64,000 bases of DNA from Escherichia phage LorandFenyves_Bas91, in sequence record PQ850614.1, one strand, 5' to 3'. Of this stretch, positions 28,234-63,525 are shown one piece after another. Made by a program: the position numbers and the translations under genes. The notes under the pieces were generated by a model. That model was not told where the DNA came from, searched no databases, and saw only the letters and a program-made list of their open reading frames with translations. Within the stretch, counting starts at the first letter, position 1, and each line of letters begins with the position of its first letter.

Positions 28234-28235
28234 TA

Positions 28236-28277
28236 AAAGAAAAGCCCCAACCGAAAGGAAGGGGCTTTATTTGTTTC
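28236..28277. terminator. bidirectional terminator between convergent gene blocks
   Basis: AGCCCC...GGGGCT stem with an A-tract on the left and TTATTTGTTT on the right; the rightward block ends at 28233 and the leftward block ends just downstream. Confidence 0.6.
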
Positions 28278-28422
28278 TAAGTTTTAAAAACCATCAAATT
28301 CGTCATACATCCCAATTCTCTTCAGAAGTCTGGATGTTCATCTTTAAAGCATCCTGAGATACCCCCATAGAACCAATCTGATTTACTTCCAAGGATAACA
28401 ACTTCTTCATTCATATACCCTC

Positions 28423-28584
28423 CTAGATTGTGTTTATAAAATTAGTAAGTTTCTCTTCACTTTCATCAAAAGCTTTTCCAGCTGCTTCCATCTCCCAAGT
28501 ATCGGCATTGTCAATAAAGCTCTGAGCTTCTAATAGGTCGTGGATTAAGTCGAAGAGTTTATTTTTATCTGCTTGTGTGATCAT
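28423..28584 (-). CDS. small hypothetical protein (53 aa)
   Basis: Not in the ORF track (under 60 aa); AGGAA RBS 6 nt upstream of ATG; starts 9 nt after the stop of the upstream gene. Confidence 0.35.
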   Translation of the reverse strand: MITQADKNKLFDLIHDLLEAQSFIDNADTWEMEAAGKAFDESEEKLTNFINTI

Positions 28585-28592
28585 GTCAGTTC

Positions 28593-32789: not shown

Positions 32790-33536
32790 TTAGAACGGGC
32801 TAGAGTCGTCATCTTCATAAGTAGAAGCTGGTTCTTTGTCAATCGTAGGGATTGAAGGAGTAGCTTCTTTCTGCTCTGTTTCAGAAGCACGAGTAATTTC
32901 ACGACCAGCCAGAGGCATGTTCTTAGCGTCATTAGCTTGAGTAAGCAGGTTGCGCTGGAACGGGAACATCAGTTGATAGGATGCTACGTTCTCATCGGTT
33001 TCAGCATACGGTTCGAAAAATACCAGAGGGCTACGAGCTTCACCAACTGCTGCACGATATTTGGTTGGGATTGGAGAAATGGTTTTGATGGAGTTTTTAA
33101 CTTCACCAGCTTTGTTAGTGTAAGAGTTAACCAGAATGTTAACAGGCTGACCTAACAGCACATCCTTGAACCAAGACAGATCACCTTTCAGTGCTTGAAT
33201 ACTTGGGTCAATCATCTTGCAAAGATCAAGAATACCAGAGTTCTTAGCTCGTGGGTTTACATCATAACTCTTGAACTGGCAAGCCGGACGTGGTTCTAAT
33301 GCCTTACCATCGGAATCTTTACCAGTAGCATCAACACCAATCAGCTCGAAAGCCAAATCCATACGGAAAGCCGGATTCTTAGGAGTTACTGCTTTGGTCT
33401 TCGGGTCAATCCAAGGGTCACGATTGTGAACACCCAAACCTACTACACGAACGATACGTGCTTCGTATTCACCATCAGGGATTACATCGTAGTTGGATTT
33501 ACGGGAAGCAGTTGCGATAGTTGGAATCATAGACAT
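32790..33536 (-). CDS. single-stranded DNA-binding protein
   Basis: Acidic C-terminal tail ending YEDDDSSPF, compare E. coli SSB DDDIPF; position in the replication module. Confidence 0.65.
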   Translation of the reverse strand: MSMIPTIATASRKSNYDVIPDGEYEARIVRVVGLGVHNRDPWIDPKTKAVTPKNPAFRMDLAFELIGVDATGKDSDGKALEPRPACQFKSYDVNPRAKNSGILDLCKMIDPSIQALKGDLSWFKDVLLGQPVNILVNSYTNKAGEVKNSIKTISPIPTKYRAAVGEARSPLVFFEPYAETDENVASYQLMFPFQRNLLTQANDAKNMPLAGREITRASETEQKEATPSIPTIDKEPASTYEDDDSSPF

Positions 33537-33595
33537 ATTTTAATTTCCTTATTTAATTTGAAAGATTGTTGCTCTCTTTGAGCGGTTATGTATAG

Positions 33596-33604
33596 TATAC
33601 ATTA
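33596..33604 (-). promoter_or_regulatory. TAATGTATA element on minus strand, candidate promoter for SSB and spanin operon
   Basis: Plus strand reads TATACATTA; lies about 60 nt upstream of the SSB start in a 416-bp AT-rich intergenic region. Confidence 0.4.
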
Positions 33605-33667
33605 CGCTTATACCGATAAGAGTACTATATAATATAAGTATCTTTGGTAGTAGATATAACACACTAG

Positions 33668-33676
33668 TAATGTATA
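33668..33676 (+). promoter_or_regulatory. TAATGTATA element on plus strand in the intergenic hub
   Basis: Exact 9-mer pointing rightward, antisense to the leftward genes; function unclear. Confidence 0.3.
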
Positions 33677-33952
33677 TATTGTATAGCTGATAAAGTTATT
33701 GCAGGCTTGTATATTGGGCAATTCACAGAATCCCTTGCAAGTACCGAAGGGCAGGAGCCACCTGCGAGATAAAAATAGAGAATTAAGGAATCCTTGATTT
33801 AGGTTGTAGGGACTCCTAGGGACTTTGATTCTCTATTTAAAAGAATATTAATTACTTATTACCTAAATAATTAACTAACTTACTTAAACCAAATTCAAGA
33901 ATAATAGATAAAAAGATTATTCCTAAGAAAGCTAAAAAGTAAAGGATATAAG

Positions 33953-34135
33953 TTACCATTCAAGTAAACCTTTAAAGTTAGTTTGTTCTACTATCCTCTG
34001 ATAATGAAGATTAGAATCAGCTTGTTTCTTTAACATCTCATTATATTGATCTCTGATAGAGTCTTTATAAACTACAGGTTCTTTAAATACTGAGATCTTC
34101 TTTTTCTCAGAGTTCAGAGGTATATTTTCTTTCAT
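33953..34135 (-). CDS. hypothetical protein
   Basis: 60 aa ORF at the start of the leftward block after the intergenic hub. Confidence 0.35.
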   Translation of the reverse strand: MKENIPLNSEKKKISVFKEPVVYKDSIRDQYNEMLKKQADSNLHYQRIVEQTNFKGLLEW

Positions 34136-34589
34136 ATTCCACTCTATTTTTAGTTGCTTCTTCTAAAGTATCAAAAGACCCTAAGTACTTAGTTCTACCC
34201 TTAATTGAGATGTTTGATATGTATTTACCCTTTCTGTTTAGATAAACACCTTTTACACCAGAGGTGTTATTAATGTTCAACCCTTTATTCCAAGAGTTTA
34301 CTTCATTATTAACTTCCCTTAGATTAGAGATAGAGTCATTTGAAGGGTTTCTATCAATATGGTCTATCTGATCTTCAGGTAAATAACCCTTAGCAGAGTA
34401 CCAAATCACATGATACCTGTACACTTGATGGCCTTTAATCCTTATCAGGCATCTTCCGTCTTTTCTGATAGACCCTACTTCCATTCCTTTCCTACATTTT
34501 GTCCCGTTATGAACCTTCCAGAAAACTTTCCCAGAAGATAAATCACAATCAAAATATTTGTCAAGGAGTTCCTCTATCATATCAAACAT
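34107..34589 (-). CDS. HNH homing endonuclease with AP2-type DNA-binding domain
   Basis: HNH core QIDHIDRNPSNDSISNLREV plus C-terminal GVKGVYLNRKGKYISNISIKGRTKYLGSFDTLEEA (AP2-like). Confidence 0.7.
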   Translation of the reverse strand: MFDMIEELLDKYFDCDLSSGKVFWKVHNGTKCRKGMEVGSIRKDGRCLIRIKGHQVYRYHVIWYSAKGYLPEDQIDHIDRNPSNDSISNLREVNNEVNSWNKGLNINNTSGVKGVYLNRKGKYISNISIKGRTKYLGSFDTLEEATKNRVEYERKYTSEL

Positions 34590-52148: not shown

Positions 52149-54179
52149 TTAACCTCTATTCAATGAACATTTAGGGGAATTACAATAAACTTGATTCATA
52201 GAACCAAGCGTACAACTTTCAGCATCGCGCCACGGAATCTGCTTAAAACACTCTGAGCAGTATCCGAGGGTTGACCACATGGCTTTGGTGAAGTCAGTGC
52301 TTCGGTTTCCGTCGAAGCTGACAACAGTTTTGCGGAGAGCTGTTCGTGATTCAGGAAACACACCTGCTTTCTCAGCAGGTTCCTCCTTTTTTGGCTTAGT
52401 TGAGATTGCAAAAATACTGTTGCTACGTTTCTCAACATAAGCATCAACAACATCCTCCAGAGTGATGCCTGTCTGTTTCGCTGAGGAAGGTAATACAGTC
52501 ATACGACCAATCATTTCTTCAGTTACACGTAAAGCAAATTCAGGACGACGGGCGTTTGTTGTATCTGTTGCTTTAATCCATACATAACCATCTTTGATCG
52601 TAGCATTAGATACTTTCTTCTTTACTTCTACAGCGCAGACTTTACAGATATCTTCTCCACGAAGACGACTAAGCTCATCATCGAACTCATTCTCTGTTTT
52701 AACTTCACCACAGATTTCACAAACACCAATAGGAGTCTCCTCCTCTTCTTCCTCTTTAGGTTTAGTCAAACCTTCCAGACATTCAGGATGCCAGTAGCAC
52801 TGATATGCGAAGACTGCTTTAGGTGCATCCTTCCAGTCAATGTGCTTGTCACAACCACCACAATCACCATGAGAGTGTGCTTCCCAGAATTTACGAGTGA
52901 TAGTAACGCCATTCTTGTTGACGAAACTATCATTCATATCAAAAGGGATATCATCATCGAAGTCAGCAGTAGTTGACTCAGGCTCCTTTTTCTCCAGAGA
53001 CGGGTCAACAAAACGACCTGCTGTGATCACTAAACGAACCATAGCATTAACTTCGGAGATGCAGGATACTGTCCCACGGTAAACAATTTTAGGGTCTTTC
53101 AGTGCGTCCTGATAAGCCTTAATGTCTACGTTATGAACATCACCTTCGATGTATTCTTGAGATTTCTCATCGTAGATATAGCCAATCATCTTACCACGAG
53201 AAGGAACAGCACCAGCAGTCGCATAAGGAACAAACTCATGTGGTGTGATTTCCACAGTCATATCGCGGCGGATATCAATGTTTCGATCGCTTGCGATTTT
53301 GTTTTGACTTACCACTGCGTTTCTTCGACGAACGTCTGCCGCTGTCACACCCGGCTTCGTGTCGTAAGGATTGCTTGTATTGCTTTTTGAGGAACTTTGA
53401 TAGTTGCTTTGGCTGTAGTTGTTCGAGTAATAACTGCCCCAACGATTGGCTACCGTAAAAACCGGAAGCTCGTGGGCGACCTCTTCAACCAGAGTCATGC
53501 TGTTGTTTGACATATCAAAGATATATTCTGTACCAACTTTACATTCAAAATGCTCGTCAATACGGTTCTTATGGGACTTAGAACGCTTCAGAATCCACAT
53601 CAACATATCTTCTTCAGAAGCACCAAACCAATCTCTGTTACAACGTGCGAGATGGAAAGGACGCTCTTCGTTACGAATGATATGAAGGCGGTTATCAGAA
53701 GCATCATGCCAGATTAAGGTGAAAGCACCATCCAGCTTTTGAATAGTCTCTGCTGCACCAATAGTGTTAATAGAGTGGCAGATGTTCTCACTGTCTACCT
53801 CGAAGTTTTTGCTGTCAGGTAACAGATCTTGGTCCATCAAGGTTCCATTATGAACCAGAGTGATGTTACCATGTTGGAAAGGATGGGCGTTCTTGGCGTT
53901 AACTGCACCTTTCGTTGCATGACGACTGTGACCAACAATCCATGAAGGTGCTACAGTGTAAGCTGTTTCACCAGTGGTGTGCTTCTTGTACTCATCTTGT
54001 AGGATGAATGCGAAAGAAGGAAGAGCTTCTTTATAAGTGAAGACTTCCTTAGTACTTTTACGCTGACCAAAGATACCGGAGGAATGTTGTCCTCGGAATA
54101 CTCCAGCATAAAAGAGTTGGTTAAATACGTCTAAATCAGTGCTTGACAGATTACCGCCAGCTAATACGATGCCACAAAT
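52149..54179 (-). CDS. class-II (Ntn) glutamine amidotransferase domain protein with three C-terminal Cys4 zinc ribbons; apparent AUU start
   Basis: Track ORF 52149..53840 extends in frame upstream to ...CGIVLAGG...RGQHSSGI...GHSRHATKG...HPF...LVHNGTL, a PurF/GlmS-type Ntn domain. The only codon before the catalytic Cys is ATT, preceded by AAA and TAG; AGGTGG lies 8 nt upstream of ATT. C-terminal motifs CGGCDKH...CYWHPEC, CEICGE...CKVC, CSEC...CNSPKC. Confidence 0.6.
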   Translation of the reverse strand: MCGIVLAGGNLSSTDLDVFNQLFYAGVFRGQHSSGIFGQRKSTKEVFTYKEALPSFAFILQDEYKKHTTGETAYTVAPSWIVGHSRHATKGAVNAKNAHPFQHGNITLVHNGTLMDQDLLPDSKNFEVDSENICHSINTIGAAETIQKLDGAFTLIWHDASDNRLHIIRNEERPFHLARCNRDWFGASEEDMLMWILKRSKSHKNRIDEHFECKVGTEYIFDMSNNSMTLVEEVAHELPVFTVANRWGSYYSNNYSQSNYQSSSKSNTSNPYDTKPGVTAADVRRRNAVVSQNKIASDRNIDIRRDMTVEITPHEFVPYATAGAVPSRGKMIGYIYDEKSQEYIEGDVHNVDIKAYQDALKDPKIVYRGTVSCISEVNAMVRLVITAGRFVDPSLEKKEPESTTADFDDDIPFDMNDSFVNKNGVTITRKFWEAHSHGDCGGCDKHIDWKDAPKAVFAYQCYWHPECLEGLTKPKEEEEEETPIGVCEICGEVKTENEFDDELSRLRGEDICKVCAVEVKKKVSNATIKDGYVWIKATDTTNARRPEFALRVTEEMIGRMTVLPSSAKQTGITLEDVVDAYVEKRSNSIFAISTKPKKEEPAEKAGVFPESRTALRKTVVSFDGNRSTDFTKAMWSTLGYCSECFKQIPWRDAESCTLGSMNQVYCNSPKCSLNRG

Positions 54180-54182
54180 TTT

Positions 54183-54212
54183 CTAATCCACCTGAAGGGT
54201 AAACCCTTTCAT
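54183..54212 (-). other. 9-codon upstream mini-ORF in frame with the amidotransferase, ending in TAG
   Basis: ATG AAA GGG TTT ACC CTT CAG GTG GAT TAG, then AAA ATT TGT; own AAGG Shine-Dalgarno 8 nt upstream. Confidence 0.35.
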
Positions 54213-54258
54213 CTAATTAACCTTTAAATTGTGCCCCTTTATCAGAGGCACCCATTGA

Positions 54259-59339: not shown

Positions 59340-59492
59340 TTACTCCTGTTGTTTACACTCGTCAATAACCCACTGATAAGTGGATTGCCCAGAAAAGAAA
59401 CACTGAATAAATCCAGATGTTCTCTGCGTTACCAGTGCTAGTGCACAAATCACTATCGCTGCTGCTAGCAGTTTTAAATCTAATTTAGACAT
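59340..59492 (-). CDS. small membrane protein (50 aa)
   Basis: Not in the ORF track; MSKLDLKLLAAAIVICALALVTQ...; GAGAGGG RBS-like sequence; stop abuts the next start. Confidence 0.4.
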   Translation of the reverse strand: MSKLDLKLLAAAIVICALALVTQRTSGFIQCFFSGQSTYQWVIDECKQQE

Positions 59493-59511
59493 ATTCCCTC
59501 TCGTTGAATTT

Positions 59512-59536
59512 AAAAAAGGACTCTCCGAAAAGAGTC
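59512..59536 (-). terminator. hairpin plus U-tract immediately upstream of a gene start
   Basis: Minus strand GACTCT-TTTCGG-AGAGTC followed by CTTTTTT. Confidence 0.55.
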
Positions 59537-59718
59537 AAGCTTTAAATACAAAAAGATATTACCCAATATCTGTGGATAACCTGCTCTTAAAATATCTATC
59601 CGACGGATGTTCGAGGGATGTTCCTCTCCCTAGCATCGGCCCCATACGGGAAATATATTAAGATTAGGTTAGTTGAGTCAGAATAACTCATATAGCCCTC
59701 CGAAGAAGGCTATAGATG

Positions 59719-61715: not shown

Positions 61716-62005
61716 ACATCCTCCAATTAAACATTTATATAAGACTTGCTTAGATAAAGATTCAATAAAATAGGGGGAGGGGACGAATCCTCCCATATCC
61801 TATTAATTAAGTTTGCATGTAAGATCTAACAATCGGTTGCCTTTGTAGGAATAGGTGTAAAGCCAATCCAGCACTAAACTCCCGCCCCCTTAGTGGGCTG
61901 GGTTATTAAAGGGTAACGCCCTTATGGGCTAGTTACATGAATGTTAGTTTGATAGGAGATCTGAAGTCCTATCTCAAAGGACTCTCGTAAGAATCCTTCA
62001 CGATA

Positions 62006-62137
62006 TTACTTATTCATTTTTCGTCGGCTATCTCTCCAAGCCAACCAAGTGTAGGTTTTCAACTCTTCTAAACTTTCTGGAGTGAATAGGTATTCTTTGA
62101 AGGTGTCACTAAACCACTCTAAAAATTCTTCAGTCAT
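62006..62137 (-). CDS. small hypothetical protein (43 aa)
   Basis: Not in the ORF track; weak RBS. Confidence 0.25.
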   Translation of the reverse strand: MTEEFLEWFSDTFKEYLFTPESLEELKTYTWLAWRDSRRKMNK

Positions 62138-63449: not shown

Positions 63450-63525
63450 TGGTCGGGACGGAAGGATTCGAACCCTCGTAAGGCGAGTTAGAAGCTCGCT
63501 GCCTGTTCCACTAGACTACGCCCCG
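63450..63525 (-). tRNA. tRNA-Arg (anticodon UCU), CCA encoded
   Basis: Hand-folded cloverleaf: acceptor CGGGGCG/CGTCCCG, D-arm GTCT-AGTGGAAC-AGGC, anticodon arm GCGAG-CTTCTAA-CTCGC, variable CTTAC, T-arm GAGGG-TTCGAAT-CCTTC, discriminator A, CCA. Confidence 0.8.

Follow-up and report, generated by a model that had tools for sequence, protein, structure and literature searches.

The 416-bp AT-rich gap at positions 33537-33952 of a 64,000-nucleotide (nt) stretch of Escherichia phage LorandFenyves_Bas91 (PQ850614.1; the whole stretch analysed is called the window below) appears to carry a pair of divergent promoters for the phage sigma factor gp36. One of them would drive a non-coding RNA of ~156 nt, and the 3' hairpin of this RNA would double as a terminator for transcription on the minus strand. 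We put the probability of this reading at roughly 0.6. A search for relatives with a 1.6-kb query around the gap returned 98 matching phage records. The best of these matches were Escherichia phage vB_EcoP-CHD5UKE1 (CHD5UKE1), phiEco32, and Shigella phage ShigP1, all at 98-99% identity, which places the window among the phiEco32-like members of Kuravirus (subfamily Gordonclarkvirinae). The gap corresponds to the interval between phi32_40 and phi32_41 of phiEco32. The records of 18 relatives were fetched, and conservation was read from an alignment (A2) of 19 phages from the genera Kuravirus, Suseptimavirus, and Nieuwekanaalvirus. The coordinates of all features are collected in Table 1.

Together with the host core RNA polymerase, gp36 recognises a single consensus, tAATGTAtA, with transcription starting 6-8 nt downstream of the element and gp79 acting as a stimulator (PMC8948821, PMC12276001, PMC4281155). 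Six gp36 promoters have been published, namely P6, P13, P26, P40, P58, and P68 (PMC8948821, PMC4281155, PMC12276001). We found five copies of the exact element TAATGTATA in the 64 kb against 0.56 expected, a count that was reached in 0 of 100 shuffles. Four of the five match the positions of the published P13, P26, P40, and P58, while the fifth, on the plus strand of the gap, is not in the published list. The two copies in the gap form a perfect 10-nt inverted repeat. A first reading made from the letters alone (the sequence-only reading) had described divergent promoter-like motifs here, and both strands do carry gp36-type elements.

The minus-strand copy is already known. The middle promoter of phage SU10 is listed as 'aagcgtaatgtatactatacataaccgctcaaagagagcaa, between CDS37 and CDS38' (PMC4281155 Table S2; PMC8948821 supplement), and this sequence is the exact reverse complement of window positions 33567-33607, which by sequence identifies the minus-strand element as P40, a published gp36-dependent middle promoter. 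The earlier suggestion that the gap heads the downstream operon was borne out. Since AATGTA is centred at -11.5 in the published geometry (PMC12276001), transcription from P40 would start at ~33589. The resulting leader has an AAGGAA Shine-Dalgarno sequence at 33545-33550, 8 nt ahead of the gp40 AUG, and its stretch AAGATTGTTGCTCTCTTTGAGCGG is near-invariant in the 19 phages, with one position differing in two of them.

Part of the evidence for a promoter on the plus strand is its likeness to P68. In the cryo-EM structure of the gp36-gp79 open complex on P68, the N-terminal domain of gp36 reads T-12 and G-11 and the C-terminal domain reads G-37 and A-34, and mutations at these four positions compromise or abolish transcription (PMC12276001). 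The plus-strand promoter has T-12, G-11, G-37, and A-34 at all of the P68 contact positions, with A at +1 (33683). P40 shares T-12, G-11, and A-34 with the P68 contacts, but has A at -37. The upstream element TTGGTAGTAGATAT begins 24 nt upstream of the plus-strand TAATGTATA, leaving a 10-nt gap between the two elements. Elsewhere in the window this 14-mer recurs exactly only once, at 44285-44298 (minus) in the upstream region of P68, with the same spacing. That the fifth copy belongs to a second, undescribed gp36 promoter of the P68 (middle) type is well supported by these matches and by conservation, and we consider it very probably active.

The sequence-only reading had proposed a middle promoter paired with a late one. 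This did not hold, as the plus-strand promoter has the P68 (middle) upstream element and not the late element TAAGACCTA. The latter is shared by the late promoters P13 and P26 (6814-6822 and 23726-23734, plus) at -39 to -31 and is absent from the four middle-type promoters, and it may be a class-specific upstream element. An A at -34 is found in all six promoters of the window.

The pattern of conservation also points to a functional promoter. Across all 19 phages there is no variation at 33645-33652 or 33654-33655, 33653 differs in one (TGGTAGTA.AT, 33645-33655), and TAATGTATATA (33668-33678) is likewise invariant in all 19. The 12 nt between the conserved upstream stretch and TAATGTATATA vary freely, as does the spacer towards P40. 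Invariant elements set among drifting spacers are the classical signature of a working promoter. In EcK-vB-like phages, an insertion of ~120 bp separates the divergent promoters and accompanies a second type of RNA middle module (type 2, see below). Carriers of both were observed among phages and metagenomic contigs: L013 (EcK-vB; 884-1050), L021, L029, L031, L033, L037, and L038. A scan for sigma-70 promoters gave 6 sites against 7.3 expected, which is no enrichment; it picked out a TAGATA-18-TATATT arrangement that overlaps the plus-strand promoter.

Genes in the window lie on the plus strand to the left of ~28 kb (the late genes) and on the minus strand to the right, including all neighbours of the gap, and the plus-strand promoter is oriented opposite to every neighbouring gene. 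P40 stands upstream of a middle gene; the plus-strand promoter stands upstream of no middle or late gene, and no conserved open reading frame (ORF) follows it on the plus strand. It is annotated in 0 of the 18 relatives' records.

What follows this promoter is a conserved block, from which we predict the ~156-nt RNA. Its 5' end was placed from the promoter geometry and its 3' end where conservation stops, so both ends are to be read as estimates. All 98 records with a gp40 of at least 80% identity had a match to the gap, and each of these matches reaches at least query position 305 (~33841). Beyond this point the genomes diverge, some continuing with gp41/gp42 and others directly with a phosphoesterase gene. 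When invariant positions were counted in 30-nt bins, 33757-33816 had 26-28 of 30, the highest in the gp40-plus-gap stretch, versus 13-25 in gp40 itself. The predicted fold of the plus-strand RNA has an energy of -45.8 kcal/mol (z = -2.66), and that of the minus strand is weaker (z = -1.48). For the RNA, Rfam 15 gave nothing at gathering thresholds and only noise (E >=3) at permissive thresholds, and ARAGORN found no tRNA or tmRNA in the gap region.

The block 33683-33838 is not protein-coding. Indels within it are 1-3 nt long among relatives, frame-shifting rather than multiples of three, and the segment 33704-33741 is swapped wholesale; together these exclude a protein-coding role. A small protein encoded in the gap, from a 32-amino-acid (aa) TTG ORF at 33699-33797 (plus) or from 37-aa minus-strand ORFs, is thus scarcely credible. 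ORFs of 32-37 aa do exist, and phage 4E8 carries an annotated coding sequence (CDS) over the stretch; yet the indels among close relatives shift every frame, the whole segment is replaced by unrelated sequence in type 2 phages, the TTG is preceded by no Shine-Dalgarno sequence, and a CDS is annotated inside the block in only 1 of the 18 fetched relatives, 4E8 itself. That annotation (OQ689734; 817-1011 of locus L003, minus) is a 64-aa CDS that covers the spacer, the plus-strand promoter, and two-thirds of the RNA block, from its 5' end up to hairpin HP3. It is probably a spurious gene call, because relatives carry frame-shifting indels.

To what extent the block is kept as a folded RNA was read from 20 distinct sequences. 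In the given register, 97.4% of the helix cells are paired, versus 36-52% when the register is slid by 1-3 columns. The 5' hairpin at the predicted +1, HP1, has two pairs that have changed on both sides (UA/GC and CG/UA/AU) and a third that alternates between GC and GU, with GU in 8 of the 20 sequences. Seven HP1 cells are changed on both sides versus 0.8 in shuffles, and 0 of 500 shuffles reach seven. The HP1 covariation score was above all 500 shuffles, whereas the count of two-sided pairs was not (42/500). The one-sided changes (12 cells) all yield G·U on the plus strand: 8 in HP1, 1 in AAGG/CCUU, and 3 in UAGG/CCUA. Their minus-strand equivalents are C·A mismatches, so this pairing fits the plus strand only.

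The middle module of the RNA is swappable. The window carries type 1, and an unrelated and longer type 2 is found in MN05, ECBP2, and the EcK-vB-like phages. Type 2 hairpins also keep their pairing, with a change from U-A to C-G in ECBP2 and a change from A to G giving U·G in L021. Mosaic RNAs were observed as well: in ev_rybdy3 an MN05-type 5' hairpin is joined to the type 1 module, in MN05 itself that hairpin goes with type 2, and the modules have therefore recombined independently.

The long 3' hairpin, HP4, contains AAGG-AAU-CCUU (33785-33795) and both copies of TAGGGACT (33807-33824). The 11-bp base of HP4 is invariant, and its 'loop' is a 38-nt invariant folded insert. An AAU/AAAU indel and two substitutions sit in the loop of AAGG-AAU-CCUU. 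This loop indel agrees with pairing on the plus strand, as do A-to-G changes in HP4 that create G·U in four sequences. The repeat AGGGACT and the palindrome AAGGAATCCTT, both noted in the sequence-only reading, belong to this hairpin and are not sites for a protein that stand on their own. Both TAGGGACT copies lose one G together in 7 of the 20 distinct sequences (GAGGACT…TAGGACT), which shortens their spacing from 10 to 9 nt. No fold that we tried accounts for this concerted change.

Read on the minus strand, HP4 folds at -18.2 kcal/mol (z = -2.3) and is followed by AUUUUUAU, with 6 U in 8 nt. It starts 13 nt after the gp41 stop codon, or ~45 nt after the phosphoesterase stop codon in phages that lack gp41. 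Most likely, HP4 on this strand terminates transcription of the upstream middle operon, which then starts afresh at P40. As an intrinsic terminator it has an AU-rich stem (2 G-C pairs in 11) and the 38-nt loop, and it is because of these two features that a standard terminator scan does not call it.

The hairpin could be just this terminator and nothing else. On such a DNA-level account, the plus-strand promoter would have arisen by duplication of P68 or resemble it incidentally, and its short transcript would be functionless, at most insulating P40 or interfering with read-through. The position of the hairpin just after gp41, with the U-run behind it, agrees with this account, as do the lack of covariation in the core and the fact that no target, homologue, or Rfam family was found in the searches made. 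We nevertheless hold it improbable. The terminator does not need the invariant 38-nt interior or the likewise invariant stretch 33745-33772, HP1 lies outside any terminator and has compensatory changes and plus-strand-only G·U pairs, and neither promoter element varies across the three genera while the flanking and intervening sequence drifts. That the transcript is a functional, discrete RNA is moderately supported.

Termination on the plus strand would be of another kind. The 3' end of the RNA may be set by Rho, which would end transcription further on, with the transcript then being trimmed as far as the hairpin. The downstream sequence would suit Rho because it is G-poor and unstructured (10 G in 122 nt).

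This downstream DNA, at 33839-33960, has been replaced by ~45 nt of other AT-rich sequence in at least 8 of the 18 fetched relatives. The gp41 gene that lies in it is present in some phiEco32-like phages and not in others, and it always adjoins the RNA block. Neither gp41 nor gp42 is present in Paul, XT18, ECBP2, Bas86, Bas88, TH43, NC-B, and E20-1, and neither is annotated in Bas92; in all nine phages the promoter and the RNA block are intact. The plus-strand transcript might run on antisense to gp41/gp42 and act in cis, in the manner of a type I toxin-antitoxin system or through convergent transcription. A small hydrophobic peptide, gp41, is indeed encoded immediately downstream in antisense orientation, and read-through is plausible since the plus-strand 3' hairpin has no good U-tract. 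However, the RNA block and promoter are kept in at least eight phages that lack gp41/gp42, and the conserved block does not overlap gp41, so the pairing expected of a type I toxin-antitoxin system is not seen. We consider this explanation very unlikely.

The main rival is a transcription-primed replication origin, in which the structured plus-strand RNA, as a hybrid or after processing at the AT-rich DNA, would prime the leading strand. The plus-strand promoter points against all genes and serves no ORF, the AT-richest DNA of the 64-kb window comes right after the RNA (Table 1), the DNA that replaces it in relatives is likewise AT-rich, and the site is within the replication-gene cluster that surrounds the gap (putative single-stranded DNA-binding protein (SSB), exonuclease, and DNA polymerase). 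Other observations speak against an origin. The region has no iteron array and no tandem array, only two 8-nt copies inside the hairpin. There is no inflection of GC skew at 33.6 kb, as the skew flips only at ~28 kb with gene orientation, though this is a low-power test in a phage. The AT-rich DNA does not adjoin the promoter but lies 156 nt from the start site, the limit of conservation coincides exactly with the hairpin end, as it should if the function of the RNA ends there, and the DNA downstream is conserved in composition only and not in sequence. We regard an origin as unlikely, and the sequence-only suggestion of one was neither supported nor refuted, with no iterons or skew inflection on one side and the adjoining AT-rich DNA on the other. 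To our knowledge, the replication origin of phiEco32-like phages has not been mapped. Were the origin reading true, a gp36-dependent, gp79-activated promoter would yield a folded RNA that places a hybrid at the AT-richest DNA, and the start of replication in these phages would be tied directly to the early-to-middle transcription switch.

We searched for relatives and partners of the predicted RNA across several databases. A BLAST search with the promoter and RNA against 5,426 complete E. coli genomes gave no match at E <=1, and an exact-pattern scan for the RNA core in GTDB bacterial genomes gave no match. In IMG/VR, exact-pattern scans with two different core patterns hit one and the same set of five near-identical Kuravirus contigs, and the corresponding scan of metagenomes added six more Kuravirus contigs plus unrelated GC-rich chance matches. 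The distant relatives 7-11, GAP52, Privateer, and LAh_8 have a gp40 homologue at 40-45% identity with only ~0-100 bp upstream of the gene. A covariance model built from the 20 sequences found no paralogue in the window and gave no match at the distant-relative loci or within the initial 50 kb of 7-11. In the set of phages examined, the RNA element is confined to the phiEco32 subgroup. Phages 7-11 and GAP52 are reported to be without TAATGTATA promoters and gp79 (PMC8948821), and the absence of the element from them fits this lack. Against the sense transcripts of the window, the RNA had 55 complementary matches of at least 9 nt, with a maximum of 11 nt, versus 70 ± 12 when shuffled, which is at or below chance. 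A role as a CsrA sponge was rejected: the RNA has 4 GGA in 163 nt versus ~2.6 expected (an estimate from base composition), and these are not consistently unpaired.

Several points weigh against the interpretation as a promoter-driven, functional RNA. One metagenomic variant (L029) has A in place of G at -11, and the primary transcription paper (Pavlova 2012) may already mention the promoter. Covariation is limited to HP1 and a few single events, the other 24 pairs being invariant or changed on one side, and the RNA core is invariant and hence silent on its own fold. For the middle domain, two or more folds compete, with HP3 standing against a long-range UUGCAGG/CCUGCGA stem and no covariation. 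The plus-strand tail AUUUAAAA (AUUAAAAU in some phages) has 3 U in 8 nt and would be a non-canonical terminator. The phages form a narrow family of close relatives, and recent recombination could account for part of the conservation. Finally, no target or partner was found among E. coli genomes or phage transcripts.

Taking these points into account, we propose the following course of events for the divergent-promoter reading. The two back-to-back promoters would be used by the host RNA polymerase once it carries gp36, the phage's sigma factor. P40 would start the mRNA for gp40 and the genes after it, while the plus-strand promoter, helped by the activator gp79, would fire at ~A33683 against the direction of the genes. 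Its product would be a stand-alone RNA of ~156 nt with a protective 5' hairpin, a variable middle module, an invariant core, and a long 3' hairpin. On the minus strand, HP4 with its U-run would end the upstream middle operon just ahead of P40. The RNA would be stable, and its invariant core would act on a partner that is itself conserved, be it a protein or a nucleic acid of the host or the phage. As an alternative, the invariant core might bind a conserved host factor and redirect it.

The phage phiEco32 is a model of how a phage takes over host RNA polymerase, through gp36 and the dual inhibitor-activator gp79, and its published map has six gp36 promoters, all ahead of genes. With a seventh promoter, one of the P68 type, the gp36/gp79 switch would gain a non-coding output, and the predicted RNA would be the first candidate for a regulatory or priming RNA in this phage subfamily. 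Members of the subfamily have repeatedly been isolated as therapeutic coliphages, and in their annotation the RNA block is blank or, in 4E8, covered by a probably spurious CDS. If the RNA is not made, the region would be ordinary, consisting of P40 and a terminator.

The description of the gap itself needed some revision. The motifs listed in the sequence-only reading were all found in place, and the AT-richness of the gap was confirmed, with a GC content of 29.8% versus 42.5% for the window, in the lowest 0.34% of 416-nt windows. The claim that it is the largest non-coding stretch depends on the threshold: it is the largest stretch without ORFs of at least 40 aa, and the second largest (416 vs 418 bp) when the limit is 60 aa. 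The 418-bp stretch, 53841-54258 (minus), is in fact coding: it specifies the N-terminal part of an amidotransferase-like protein whose gene lacks a canonical start codon. Its translation has a class-II amidotransferase or Ntn-type N-terminus (…K-I-CGIVLAGG…, later HNGTL), and the frame follows directly after a stop codon with no ATG, GTG, or TTG start; an ATT start or a disrupted gene is possible. Because 33852-33959 is the annotated, conserved 35-aa ORF phi32_41, the non-coding gap is 33537-33851, or 315 bp. The TATA-rich near-repeats (GTATAGTATACATTAC, AGTACTATATAATATAAGTA, and TTGTATATTGGG) are not a repeat family; they fall in the promoters, in the variable spacer between these, and in the RNA. 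The SSB label of gp40 was left unconfirmed. Its basis is one GenBank annotation and an acidic C-terminal tail ending in F; gp40 has no Pfam match and no PDB match. Its PHROG has no assigned function, and a single-sequence AlphaFold model (pLDDT 37) was unusable for checking the label.

Table 1. Features in and around the gap between gp40 and gp41, in window coordinates.
Feature	Position	Strand	Basis or remark
gp40 homologue, 248 aa, putative SSB	32790-33536	minus	first gene of P40 unit; 99% identical to phi32_40
gp40 mRNA 5' untranslated region (UTR), 53 nt	33537-33589	minus	GCUC/GAGC hairpin and AAGGAA Shine-Dalgarno; start predicted
TATA-rich motif GTATAGTATACATTAC	33590-33605		sequence inspection
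P40 element TAATGTATA	33596-33604	minus	exact match; P40 in published gp36 promoter table
Variable spacer between divergent promoters	33606-33643		3/30 positions invariant in bin 33607-33636
TATA-rich motif AGTACTATATAATATAAGTA	33621-33640		sequence inspection
Upstream (-35 region) element TTGGTAGTAGATAT, -39 to -26	33644-33657	plus	identical to P68 copy
-10-like element TAATGTATA (T at -12, G at -11)	33668-33676	plus	exact consensus match; predicted start A33683
Predicted ~156-nt non-coding RNA	33683-33838	plus	promoter geometry (5' end), conservation limit (3' end)
HP1, 5' hairpin at predicted +1	33683-33699	plus	compensatory changes
Middle module, swappable; type 1 in window	33704-33741	plus	19-phage alignment
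TATA-rich motif TTGTATATTGGG	33707-33718		sequence inspection
HP3, GCAGG-AG(C/A)CA-CCUGC	33751-33765	plus	stem invariant; sole variable base in loop
HP4, long 3' hairpin, 11-bp base	33773-33838	plus	inverted repeat and predicted folds
AAGGAATCCTT	33785-33795		palindrome
TAGGGACT, two copies	33807 and 33817 (span 33807-33824)		direct repeat
Most AT-rich DNA of window, 19.7% GC	33839-33960		window GC minimum begins 33824
gp41, 35-aa hydrophobic peptide	33852-33959	minus	phi32_41, PHROG 24970, E = 2.7e-24
tRNA-Arg(UCU) gene	63450-63525	minus	sole Rfam/ARAGORN match within window

Elsewhere in the window, we observed ORF-free stretches at 28234-28592, 59369-59718, and 61797-62081 (285-359 bp). A free-standing HNH endonuclease gene lies at 34107-34589 (minus), between the gp42 and gp43 homologues; its product matches HNH_3 above the Pfam cutoff and has a weak AP2 match below the cutoff. 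None of the 98 matching records, phiEco32 included, aligns beyond window position ~34118 (query position 1119), and for this reason the gene looks like a homing-endonuclease insertion peculiar to LorandFenyves_Bas91.

Among known systems, the minus-strand element could be compared directly with the SU10 equivalent of P40: sequence, flanks, and place upstream of a gp40 homologue are the same, and no difference was found. The plus-strand promoter resembles P68 in having TTGGTAGTAGATAT at -39 to -26 and, after an equal gap of 10 nt, (T/A)AATGTATA, as well as T-12, G-11, G-37, and A-34, an A at +1, and a short hairpin directly after it. It differs in its setting: P68 stands ahead of a middle gene for a protein and is oriented with the gene flow, whereas the plus-strand promoter reads against the flow and has no ORF. 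HP4 resembles intrinsic and bidirectional terminators as a hairpin between convergent units that, on the minus strand, is preceded by an A-run and followed by a U-run, but its base is AU-rich, it holds a 38-nt invariant insert, and its plus-strand U-run is poor.

Models for a transcript-primed origin are offered by oriF/oriG of T4 (a middle promoter plus an unwinding element), the primary origin of T7 (promoters plus an AT-rich region), and RNA II of ColE1. The gap shares with the T4 and T7 origins a phage-specific promoter without a gene, AT-rich DNA, and a replication module; unlike them, it has a conserved, folded 156-nt RNA between the promoter and the AT-rich DNA, and no skew signal. Phage-encoded small RNAs resemble the predicted RNA in being short, structured, and non-coding, with their own promoter and a place in a phage intergenic region. 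In contrast to them, the predicted RNA has no Rfam match, no canonical U-tailed terminator, and no above-chance seed complementarity to phage transcripts, and it would come from a strictly lytic phage and depend on the phage's own sigma factor.

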